This document shows positions 59,119-63,918 of a stretch of DNA of 64,000 nucleotides, in pieces (position 1 is the stretch's first letter; each line of letters starts with the position of its first letter). The stretch is from a phage: NCBI GenBank assembly GCA_024613925.1, contig GCA_024613925.1_4713.1; one strand, given 5' to 3'. The position numbers were made by a program, and so were the translations under genes. Under the pieces are notes generated by a model. That model searched no databases, was not told the origin of the DNA, and worked only from the letters and a program-made list of their open reading frames with translations.

Positions 59119-59625
59119 TCATGCTAAAATTCCTTCATTACCTAACAGTCGATTACGATGACGTCGGTACATTTGACAAAGTGTTGTGATTTGATAATGT
59201 TTGTTGTAACGTACCTCGATACGTTTTTGCACCTCTTTCCATGGAAGTTTATCGTATTGCCGATAACGATGGATTTCATTTAACATACGAAGACGAGTAG
59301 GATCGGTGTTCTTTATCGTCGTGAGCTTCACGCGTTGATATCCACGCTGTAGTCCCGATTCGGAATACGTGACGTCAAACTCATCCTGAATGATGGTGAT
59401 GATCTCCCGCCACCGACGGTTCTCGCCGTCACGTAAATGGACAACCCGCGATAAGATATCGTTCCGATTACGATGACTCAGTTTGATGTTAAGCATTGAA
59501 GCAATCGCGCTAATTGCTCTCTGACTCCGTCCTAACGCTTCACCGATTTCTTTCGATGTCATGACGCCCGCGTTTCGGCGTATGAATGCGATTTCGGTTG
59601 TTGTGTATTCTTTACCTGCTGCCAT
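59119..59625 (-). CDS. Myb/SANT-like helix-turn-helix protein, array paralog 1
   Basis: Repeat YTTTEIAFIRRNAGVMTSKEIGEALGRSQRAISAI plus C-terminal W/Y-rich domain shared with neighbours. Confidence 0.5.
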   Translation of the reverse strand: MAAGKEYTTTEIAFIRRNAGVMTSKEIGEALGRSQRAISAIASMLNIKLSHRNRNDILSRVVHLRDGENRRWREIITIIQDEFDVTYSESGLQRGYQRVKLTTIKNTDPTRLRMLNEIHRYRQYDKLPWKEVQKRIEVRYNKHYQITTLCQMYRRHRNRLLGNEGILA

Positions 59626-60089
59626 TTCTTACCACGTGTGTTATAATAGTAACGCTGACAAAGATGTGTGTGACGATACTCCCGTTTGAACTCGACGCTG
59701 ATAATGCGAGCAACTTCTCTCCAGTTAACCCCTTCACGTCGAAGTGCTGTAATACGGTCTGAAATTCTGCACCATTCATCCGGGTCGTATCGTCGTAGCT
59801 TGAGTCGTCGTATTACGGAGGCGACACTCGCTCTCGATCGGCCAAGATGATTTGACAGCTGTTTAACCGAGTATCTGTGGATATTGTCACGAATATAGGA
59901 AATCTCGTTGTCCGTATATGCCTCATTGGTTCTCGACGAAGGGAACAGCATATACAGCTTATTCTTAATCGCGCTTTCTGTGCGTTGAAATACAGCAGCC
60001 AGCTCACTAACCGGTGGTCTGGGTATCCGGTCCGCGTAATCCTCGAGGCGTGAGAGTTCCTCATCTGTCCAGCGATGGTACTTGCGCAT
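59559..60089 (-). CDS. Myb/SANT-like helix-turn-helix protein, array paralog 2
   Basis: Start moved to ATG at 60089 (MRKYHRWTDEELSRLEDY) with AGGAG 6 nt upstream; two repeats. Confidence 0.5.
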   Translation of the reverse strand: MRKYHRWTDEELSRLEDYADRIPRPPVSELAAVFQRTESAIKNKLYMLFPSSRTNEAYTDNEISYIRDNIHRYSVKQLSNHLGRSRASVASVIRRLKLRRYDPDEWCRISDRITALRREGVNWREVARIISVEFKREYRHTHLCQRYYYNTRGKKWQQVKNTQQPKSHSYAETRAS

Positions 60090-60564
60090 GGGCAACTCCT
60101 TTGTTTTTCGTGTAGTAACACCAACGTTGATACAACGCATGTTTATTCGTTGTAATCCCAAATTTAACAACAACGTCGTAGGTAATAACATCCCAATTTT
60201 GGGTGACGTTAAGTCGTTCCGCGATAAACGCGATAATCGCTTCCCGTTCTTGCTTGGTTAGCGCACGACGAATTCCGTTAAGCCGTATAAACTGACGAAC
60301 CGAGTCATACGAACGGTTTAAATCGTACGCAATCTCCCGCAGCGATTTTTGTCTGATTACCGACTTGATGTATGTGCGTTCTTCTTCCGTATACGGCCGA
60401 TGCTTTTGACGTTGACGTATTCCCAAACGCCCCAGACGCGCGTCGACGCTGGCGCGTGTTCGCCCTGTCCGTTGCGCGATTTCATCAATCGTCATCGATG
60501 TGTTCAAATACAGATGCGTAACATCTTTCAGCTCGTCGTCACGCCACGGTCGAGATCGTCCCAT
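60061..60564 (-). CDS. Myb/SANT-like helix-turn-helix protein, array paralog 3
   Basis: RPWRDDELKDVTHLYLNTSMTIDEIAQRTGRTRASV and YTEEERTYIKSVIRQKSLREIAYDLNRSYDSVRQFI. Confidence 0.55.
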   Translation of the reverse strand: MGRSRPWRDDELKDVTHLYLNTSMTIDEIAQRTGRTRASVDARLGRLGIRQRQKHRPYTEEERTYIKSVIRQKSLREIAYDLNRSYDSVRQFIRLNGIRRALTKQEREAIIAFIAERLNVTQNWDVITYDVVVKFGITTNKHALYQRWCYYTKNKGVAHAQVPSLDR

Positions 60565-61042
60565 CTTGTATCCCTCTTTTCTTTCTATGATGCCACCAAC
60601 GCTGATAGACAGCTTGCTTCGTACGTGTTATACCGAAATGCGCATTAACCCGTTCAGCAATGTGGTGCCAATCCTGCGTTTCTTCCAACAATGTATCAAC
60701 GAAGGCTATGAAGATCTTAGTATCAGCCTCGCTTAACCGCTTGAAACCATGACGATGTGCTATCGTTCTGATACTGTTTGGATCCCTGTTTAAATCGCGT
60801 GCGAGTTGTTTGTAACTTTTGTGTTTGCAGTGTGCTCTGATATATTCCAACTCATCGACGCTGAAACGTTTATGTGGTTTACGACGTTCAACATTTAAGT
60901 ATACCAACCTCGATTTAATTGCACCGTACGTTGTTTCCATGATTTCTGCGATTTCACGGATTTTTAATTTCGGGTGACGATAGTACAATTCCAGCAACTG
61001 TTCATCATCCTTACGATTCCATCGTCGTACTGGAGGTTTCAC
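60539..61042 (-). CDS. Myb/SANT-like helix-turn-helix protein, array paralog 4
   Basis: RRWNRKDDEQLLELYYRHPKLKIREIAEIMETTYGAIKSR and FSVDELEYIRAHCKHKSYKQLARDLNRDPNSIRTI. Confidence 0.55.
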   Translation of the reverse strand: MKPPVRRWNRKDDEQLLELYYRHPKLKIREIAEIMETTYGAIKSRLVYLNVERRKPHKRFSVDELEYIRAHCKHKSYKQLARDLNRDPNSIRTIAHRHGFKRLSEADTKIFIAFVDTLLEETQDWHHIAERVNAHFGITRTKQAVYQRWWHHRKKRGIQDGTISTVA

Positions 61043-61523: not shown

Positions 61524-61535
61524 AGCGCCACCCCA

Positions 61536-61856
61536 TCAACGTCTTACTTTAAGCGGTATTCTGTTTCGAAAACAATAACACCGGATGGCGTGTACGCTAC
61601 GATTCATTATTTCAGCGATTTCATTTAGGGTATGCTTCTTTGCAAGCATAGCAACTCTGGTTCTTTCTTCTGGTGTGTAAACTCCCCCACGAGGAGGTAG
61701 GTCACCTCGTCGTTTCCTCAACTTGAGGTAACGTGCGCGAATAGAACACGGTGTCCGATCCATGCAACGCGCTATTTCTTTATAGCTCGCTTTTGGTGAT
61801 GTGCTAAGAATAAGTAGCAGTGCTTCATCTTCTTTATCCGTCCAACGTTTACCCAT
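61536..61856 (-). CDS. Myb/SANT-like helix-turn-helix protein, array paralog 6 (short form)
   Basis: Start moved to ATG at 61856 ([15 protein letters not shown]) with AAGGAG upstream; two repeats, no C-terminal domain. Confidence 0.5.
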
Positions 61857-63918
61857 CTTTTCTATTCTCCTTAACTTTATCAATCATCGAAATCAACATG
61901 TTGATACTTTCTTCTTCGTTATCGGTTGCATCCCAGTCTCGAATAACGGGAATCCCCAACGCTTCCGCTTTCGCGAGTTTACTGCCGGGATTACTTCCAC
62001 AGATAACAACCGTCGTGTTTTTACTCACACCGCTTGTAATCGTGCCTCCCATGTTCGCTAAACGCGCGGCAAGCCGATTTCTATCGATGCTGTTGAAACT
62101 TCCCGTGATAACGACCCGTGTATCTAATAACGGTAACTGATTCATATCGCGTTCCTTAACTGGAGCTGGCGTTACACCGACATCGTACAACAGATCGAAG
62201 ATATATCCACGATTTGCTTTATCGTAGATGTACGTTAAGATCTGATCGGCTGTGATCTCACCAACACCATCAACGGCGAGTAAGCTTTCTTTATCAGCAG
62301 CTAAAAAACTATCCACGGTCTTAAATGCGTTAGCAAGATCACGTGCTGTGCTTTTACCCACTGTAAGAATACCTAACCCGTAGATGAAACGTGCTAGCGT
62401 AGTCTCTTTGGATTTCTGGATAGCATCGATCACCTTGAAGGCGCTGTAATCTGTAAACCCATCCAGCTGGCTAACCTGCTCACGAGTTAACAGATAGAGG
62501 TCGACGGCTGATTGCACCAACCCGCAGTTGTAGACCTGTTCCAAGAACCGTTCGCCAACACCTTCGATGTCCATGACGTCACGACTTACCCAATGAATAA
62601 GACGCGCTACCGCTTGGTCAGGACAAGTTCCGGTTGCAGGACAGCGCCAACGCGCTTCATTTTCCTTTTTCGTTAATGCTGTCCCGCAGGTTGGGCAGTG
62701 GGTTGGAAAAATGATTTCTTTTCTTTCCTCTCCGGGACGCACACTCACGATTTGAGGAATGACGTCACCAGCACGACGAATAACAACATAATCACCAACG
62801 CACACACCTAACCGATTTATTTCGGCTTCGTTGTGCAACGTGATGTTGCTTATCGTTGTACCCCCAACGAACACCGGTTCAACGCGAGCCACGGGTGTGA
62901 TGCTTCCTGTTCGACCAACCTGAAAATCAACATCGAGTAGCCGGGTGGCTTTTTCCTGCGCGGGGAATTTCCATGCCCGCGCCCAGCGCGGTGCGCGAGA
63001 CGTTGCGCCGAGCTTCTCCTGCATCGCAACATCATTCAGTTTTATTACCATACCGTCAATATCAAACAAGCGCTTCTCACGCCATGTAAGCATGTCACGA
63101 TACACCACAATCAACTCTTCTGTCCCCGTGGCGATATACGATTCGTTATATAGACCTAACCCTAACGCGGCAACAAACCCCATTTTTGATCCCTGCGTCG
63201 CAAACGTGTAGGTGTCATCACCATCCACGAAAACATCGTAGGGACAGAACAACAAACGACGTTTTGCGACGGTTTGCGGATCCAAACGTCGTAACGTACC
63301 TGATGCCGCGTTACGCGGATTTACGTACGGTTTTTCATTGTTTGCAACGAGTTCTGTGTTCAAGAGTTCAAAGGCGTAGTGCGGCATCAACACTTCACCA
63401 CGAACTTCGATTTTCTGCGGTGTTGATTCCCCCATTCTCAATTGTGGAAAGACGCCCATTACCGTACGGATATTCGACGTAACATCTTCGCCCTGAACAC
63501 CGTCCCCACGAGTTACCGCACGTCGCAACAAACCATCCTCGTAATGAATCGCGATCGCTAATCCATCGTATTTGGGTTCGATCAAGTATTCGAGCGTGTC
63601 TTCTGCTACCCCTAAGGTTTTTGCGATGGACTCCGTCCAATTCCGCAACTCTTCTTCACTGAAGAGGTTATCCAAAGACATCATCGGAGACGGATGCTTC
63701 ACGGTCTCAAAACCGTCAACTGGCGTACCTACACGACGGGTTGGGCTGTTAGGCGAAACCTGATCAGGATGCTGCGCTTCATATTCCCGTATCGTTTTCA
63801 CCAGGTTATCGTATTCTTCATCGGTGTATTTCGGTTCCGCTTTAACATGGTAATAGTAATCAGCTTCGAGGATCGTATCGATAAGTTTCAGATAGTCTAA
63901 TACTGTTGTGATTTTCAT
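61849..63918 (-). CDS. ligA: NAD-dependent DNA ligase
   Basis: 689 aa; adenylation motif EPKYDGLAI; Cys4 zinc finger [14 protein letters not shown]; overall LigA domain order; start overlaps upstream stop (ATGA). Confidence 0.9.

Follow-up and report, generated by a model that had tools for sequence, protein, structure and literature searches.

D5 (T5.118) of bacteriophage T5 is an abundant protein that binds double-stranded DNA cooperatively and with little sequence specificity. The T5 record annotates it as a DNA-binding protein on which DNA replication and late transcription depend. It has also been described as a DNA-binding helix-turn-helix (HTH) protein, toxic by itself, that sets off a type IX retron (bioRxiv 10.64898/2026.07.11.737809). 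BLAST-level orthologs of D5 occur almost entirely in T5-like phages of ~105-128 kb (903 records, assessed by genus and in a 40-row sample). Another relevant system is the jumbo Bacillus phage G, in which Myb-type, RsfA-like HTH transcription factors have expanded; according to the same study, 92% of jumbo phages encode transcription factors of their own (Iyer et al. 2021, PMC7824862).

Here we describe six paralogous genes for predicted HTH proteins in a window of 64,000 nucleotides (the whole stretch of phage DNA analysed). The DNA of the window shares 95.6% identity with that of Escherichia phage Goslar, a chimallivirus, i.e. a nucleus-forming jumbo phage. As in phage G, Myb-type HTH proteins have expanded here in a lineage-specific manner, and again in a jumbo phage. 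However, phage G belongs to subgroup 3.2, has no phage nucleus and encodes members of the RsfA-like subfamily, and a six-gene tandem array behind a ligase is not described in PMC7824862.

Layout of the array beside the DNA ligase

The ORF calls place the array at positions 59119-61856, as six consecutive, co-oriented paralogs of 106-176 aa on the minus strand directly downstream of the NAD-dependent DNA ligase gene; together with the alignments they confirm the array that had been noticed from the letters of the DNA alone (hereafter the sequence-only reading). The six proteins comprise 17 three-helix modules of three kinds, referred to as R1 (Trp-type), R2 (Tyr/Phe-type) and the C-terminal R3:

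61849-63918, minus strand: NAD-dependent DNA ligase, 689-aa ORF, ortholog of Goslar gp121; upstream of g6, co-oriented and overlapping it
61536-61856, minus strand: g6, 106 aa, ortholog of gp119; R1 (1-51) and R2 (59-101), without R3
61056-61523, minus strand: g5, 155 aa, ortholog of gp118; R1 (1-49), R2 (54-100) and R3 (102-153)
60539-61042, minus strand: g4, 167 aa, GTG start, ortholog of gp117; R1 (4-55), R2 (57-103) and R3 (105-157)
60061-60564, minus strand: g3, 167 aa, ortholog of gp116; R1 (1-53), R2 (55-100) and R3 (103-157)
59559-60089, minus strand: g2, 176 aa, ortholog of gp115; R1 (1-53), R2 (54-101) and R3 (103-156)
59119-59625, minus strand: g1, 168 aa, ortholog of gp114; R2 (5-49), R3a (50-102) and R3b (107-159)

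All six reading frames are intact, and the domain HMMs found no further copies elsewhere in the window. Position 61883, earlier taken as the end of the array, is a TTG that opens the g6 open frame; the likely start of g6 is the ATG at 61856, which is preceded by an AAGGAG ribosome-binding site (found also at g2) and is annotated as the start in Goslar. With this start, g6 and the end of the ligase gene share 8 nt. The proposed chaining of the genes by overlaps is seen at three of the five internal junctions (67 nt for g1/g2, 29 nt for g2/g3 and 26 nt for g3/g4) and not at the remaining two, which are 12-13 nt spacers. No terminator-like site above chance level was found between the ligase and the array, and the ligase is the probable co-transcription partner of the latter. 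Since the genes share one orientation and lie close together, with several overlapping junctions, the array proteins would be made together with the DNA ligase.

RefSeq annotates the Goslar ortholog of g1 only as a 147-aa form that begins at an internal ATG (59562 in the window). The long form of 168 aa, in which the domain HMMs match R2 and two R3, is present identically in Goslar and conserved in homologs of 168-169 aa, including one (P0015) with Leu in place of the internal Met; in one relative (L002) it begins at a 4-nt ATGA overlap.

Modules and predicted fold

The six paralogs are colinear and pairwise 22-37% identical. BLASTP returns a match for 13 of the 15 pairs, in 11 cases with E from 1e-5 to 4e-26, the latter for g3 and g4 (31% identity over 158 aa). 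The matches between g2 and g6 (E ~0.03) and between g1 and g3 (E 1.8) are weak, and none was found for g1-g4 and g1-g6; g1 is linked to the family via g2 (E 2e-8) and g5 (E 1e-6). The repeat pattern, as judged from the sequences, is not due to chance. The expected two repeat copies per protein are present as R1+R2 in five of the six, whereas in g1 a single repeat, of the R2 type, precedes two copies of the C-terminal domain (R2+R3+R3). Profiles of R1 and R2 are homologous (hhalign probability 96.7%, E 3.7e-10). The C-terminal domain with the W..I..F..Y motif, noted earlier in most members, is indeed found in all except g6, the shortest of the proteins. All six are basic, with pI of 9.7-10.5 and net charge of +11 to +15.

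The modules are predicted to form three-helix bundles with the HTH built from helices 2 and 3, and three such bundles are seen in the AlphaFold model of g4 (pLDDT 84); the poorly conserved C-terminal tail of g2 (~20 aa) lies outside the coverage of that model. The Myb- or homeodomain-like character proposed earlier agrees with Pfam matches above cut-off: Myb_DNA-binding (PF00249, 33.1 bits) and Myb_DNA-bind_6 (PF13921, 33.6 bits) in R1 of g6, PF13921 in R3 of g4 (28.0 bits), Sigma70_r4_2 in g5 (34.3 bits) and g4 (28.0 bits), and HTH_28 (27.4 bits) and HTH_23 (26.8 bits) in g5. The remaining four proteins (g1, g2, g3 and g5) stay under the Myb cut-offs. RefSeq labels Goslar gp119 as "SANT/Myb domain-containing protein". 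The repeats resemble Myb/SANT proteins (the R1-R3 repeats of c-Myb, Reb1, SNAPC4, CEF1) in their tandem three-helix modules of ~50 aa. The repeats lack the three tryptophans that are the classical signature of Myb: only the first Trp is found in R1, where it is invariant, R2 has Tyr/Phe or nothing at this position, and R3 has the central Trp only.

The best matches are to DNA-binding domains, namely those of GcrA, Reb1, Tc3 and c-Myb. The N-terminal domain of GcrA (PDB 5yiu; PF07750) shares the HTH fold and the motif W-T-x-E ... S..(Q/E)IA..LG ... R..V..K..RLGL, and the R2 profile matches the GcrA N-terminus with E 8e-5, the GcrA sequence used being an approximate one. However, the C-terminal, sigma-70-interacting part of GcrA is undetected in the array proteins, in which the module is repeated and joined with R3. 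Tc3, Mos1, Pax5 and Pax6 are among the top Foldseek rows, and the Tc3/mariner/IS630 transposases and Pax proteins resemble the array proteins in having two or more HTH modules with a short basic linker, although the array proteins are without the catalytic domain of the transposases.

More specific assignments were rejected. The array proteins are not sigma-70 factors: regions 2 and 3 are missing, and with 16-22 bits the NCBIfam sigma models stay far below their cut-offs (43-323). Nor are they full members of the GcrA family, as PF07750 yields 14 bits where 26.9 would be needed and aligns at profile positions 2-60 only. An identity as Tc3/IS630-type transposases was dismissed as well, with HTH_33 below cut-off on R3 (best E 0.002, 3 of 15 members) and no DDE catalytic domain, as was that of a homing endonuclease (HNH, GIY-YIG or LAGLIDADG): the Pfam scan at E<=1 gave no nuclease family, and PHROG endonuclease profiles align with the array proteins solely in their HTH parts. 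Judging from their sequences, the six proteins very likely bind DNA. The predicted fold is an HTH and the family prototype, D5, binds DNA; neither a non-HTH structure nor membership of a known non-DNA-binding family, which the sequence-only reading had named as arguments against itself, was encountered.

Kinship to D5 and conservation in Goslar-like phages

The sequence-only reading did not recognise the arrangement from characterised phages. The family is nevertheless known there: all six proteins have PHROG 323 ("transcriptional regulator, D5-like"), the family with T5 D5 as prototype, as their best-ranked PHROG match (E 8.4e-10 for g1, 5.4e-19 for g2, 5.7e-18 for g3, 6.2e-18 for g5 and 2.8e-18 for g6). 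D5 itself matches this family with E 1.2e-71, and when the R1 and R2 HMMs were run against 30 kb of T5, D5 was the sole matching ORF (E 1.5e-6 and 3.7e-10). The matches of the array proteins are confined to profile positions ~92-270 (92-251 for g2) and do not extend over the full D5 architecture (3-270). The link is limited to the HTH repeats. A direct hhalign comparison with the D5 sequence gives a modest match (probability 55%, E 1.2e-4), and for R3 nothing related could be detected in D5. Both systems have Trp-type followed by Phe/Tyr-type HTH repeats with the motif ..EIA..(L)GR(T/S)..(A/S)(V/I)..R, and D5 overlaps the gene for NAD-ligase subunit B by 8 nt, just as g6 overlaps its ligase. 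However, D5 is the 255-aa product of a single gene and has three HTH repeats plus an additional N-terminal domain, whereas the Goslar-like array consists of six genes of 106-176 aa with a C-terminal R3. By these profile matches the six genes are distant relatives of D5 and belong to a known family of phage HTH proteins that has expanded in this lineage, and the fold of their products is for this reason an ordinary one.

The array genes correspond to gp114-gp119 of Goslar, and the ligase is 93% identical to that of Goslar, the ligase Pfam domains being recorded on its orthologs. Across all Goslar-like contigs examined the genes have one-to-one orthologs in a fixed order, which, together with the low identity between paralogs, fits the earlier proposal of old duplication followed by divergence; the tandem duplication would predate the divergence of the Goslar-like phages. 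The orthologs of g6 in two relatives (L003 and L005) are 152 aa long and have R3. Purifying selection acts on all six genes, with dN/dS of 0.07-0.27 (0.14 for g5 against both Goslar and L005; 0.25-0.27 for g2). In L002, g2-g5 are just 39-69% identical, compared to 86-95% for the flanking genes. In Goslar and L002 an unrelated gene of 235 aa lies between the ligase and the array. The presence of gp112, gp113 and gp120 of Goslar varies among relatives, which marks the region as plastic. Moabite and RSL2, chimalliviruses with ligases among the closest, have no such genes within 6 kb of the ligase; adjacency to the ligase is not general.

The R1/R2 unit is widespread: profile searches found 15,956 cluster representatives at E<=1e-3, mostly long proteins with 4-9 matched stretches per chain. 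The unit is very common among proteins from metagenomes. In long metagenomic and phage proteins of this kind (e.g. P0021, P0036, gp65 of Listeria phage B054) the repeats reside in one polypeptide, sometimes fused to a helicase, HNH or methyltransferase domain, while in the Goslar-like array they are split over six genes, all but g6 ending in R3. The R1-R2-R3 form was seen in these searches only in Goslar-like phages. The literature examined contains no experiment on, or mention of, Goslar gp114-118; the only "gp119" found there, in one paper, is that of PhiKZ and not the Goslar gene.

Possible roles of the array proteins

We propose, with moderate confidence, that the six proteins are D5-like regulators of phage replication and transcription whose modules would lie along the phage DNA. 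These small basic proteins may be viewed as strings of two or three independent HTH modules with short basic linkers, which would be laid along DNA as in Myb R2R3 or in the bipartite domains of Tc3 and paired proteins. The target would most likely be the genome of the phage within its nucleus. The paralogs differ in their recognition helices (65-70% identical within orthologs vs 20-22% between paralogs) and for that reason probably prefer different sites; however, these helices diverge between paralogs no more than the other helices do, so that this divergence alone does not demonstrate divergent specificity. Together, the six may tune the replication of the phage and the switch in its transcription programme, like D5 in T5. 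Sequence-specific binding, temporal regulation, hijacking of the host and an anti-defence function, all suggested in the sequence-only reading, are conjectures at this stage.

Alternatively, the array could encode non-specific, cooperative DNA-coating proteins, a phage "chromatin" in the nucleus or the early vesicle, with a global effect on transcription and replication. The high positive charge of all six, the supply of 17 HTH modules from tightly packed and probably co-translated genes, the kinship to an abundant cooperative binder of double-stranded DNA and the toxicity of D5 expressed alone are consistent with this scenario, and the low sequence specificity of D5 would argue against classical site-specific factors. 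Nonetheless, we consider it rather unlikely, because the maintenance of six diverged paralogs, each one-to-one and under purifying selection, is not readily explained if a single basic coat protein were enough, and because helices that are paralog-specific yet conserved among orthologs suggest distinct roles.

Chimalliviruses (Chimalliviridae) transcribe with their own polymerases, enclosed by a protein shell, and it is tantalizing to imagine that the six proteins are the missing specificity or timing factors in the phage nucleus: a "split" array of 17 modules, each member reading a different class of Goslar sites, would set the early-to-late programme with the sigma-less multisubunit phage RNA polymerases, and its hypervariable g2-g5 core would re-tune it between lineages. 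This bolder scenario seems to us a distinctly unlikely one. An improbable role, to a similar or slightly greater degree, is that of cytoplasmic host take-over factors that attach to the chromosome of E. coli or to its transcription machinery and shut down or re-route host functions. R1 and R2 do resemble GcrA and sigma region 4, modules that work with bacterial RNA polymerase, T5 D5 has a toxic effect on uninfected cells, and 175 of the 249 Goslar genes (~70%) are on at 5 min, which makes early expression of the array the prior expectation. On the other hand, neither the sigma-interacting part of GcrA nor sigma regions 2/3 were detected in the proteins, and the Pfam GcrA model is below threshold; their neighbour is a replication gene (the ligase) rather than any known host take-over gene, and the use of phage polymerases also speaks against this role.

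The missing triple-tryptophan signature could point to SANT-like protein-protein adaptors, e.g. for polymerase or replisome subunits, that do not bind DNA. SANT domains without DNA binding are typically acidic, unlike the strongly basic array proteins, and the best matches of the latter are the DNA-binding domains of GcrA, Reb1, Tc3 and c-Myb, with D5 itself a DNA binder; we regard such a function as very unlikely. Finally, the fusion of the HTH unit to HNH or other endonucleases and methyltransferases in other phages (PHROG, annotations, BFVD), the variability of gp112, gp113 and gp120 and the low identity of g2-g5 in L002 might suggest orphaned DNA-binding modules of homing endonucleases or mobile genes, drifting after loss of the nuclease, but this can hardly be maintained given that Pfam finds neither a nuclease domain nor a trace of one in the six proteins, that gene order, one-to-one orthology and frames are preserved, and that the dN/dS values largely settle the point.

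Six "hypothetical proteins" are now tied to a characterised family. If they turned out to be generic DNA-coating proteins, this would amount to a routine gain in annotation. By analogy with D5, type IX retrons might sense the array proteins. Goslar is tractable, RNA-seq and CRISPRi-ART having already been applied to it. A 2025 review of the biology of nucleus-forming jumbo phages mentions no transcription factor, and none for this family turned up in the literature examined; in this context, a conserved, selected block of six predicted DNA-binding paralogs provides a candidate set for the control of expression timing or DNA organisation in Chimalliviridae.

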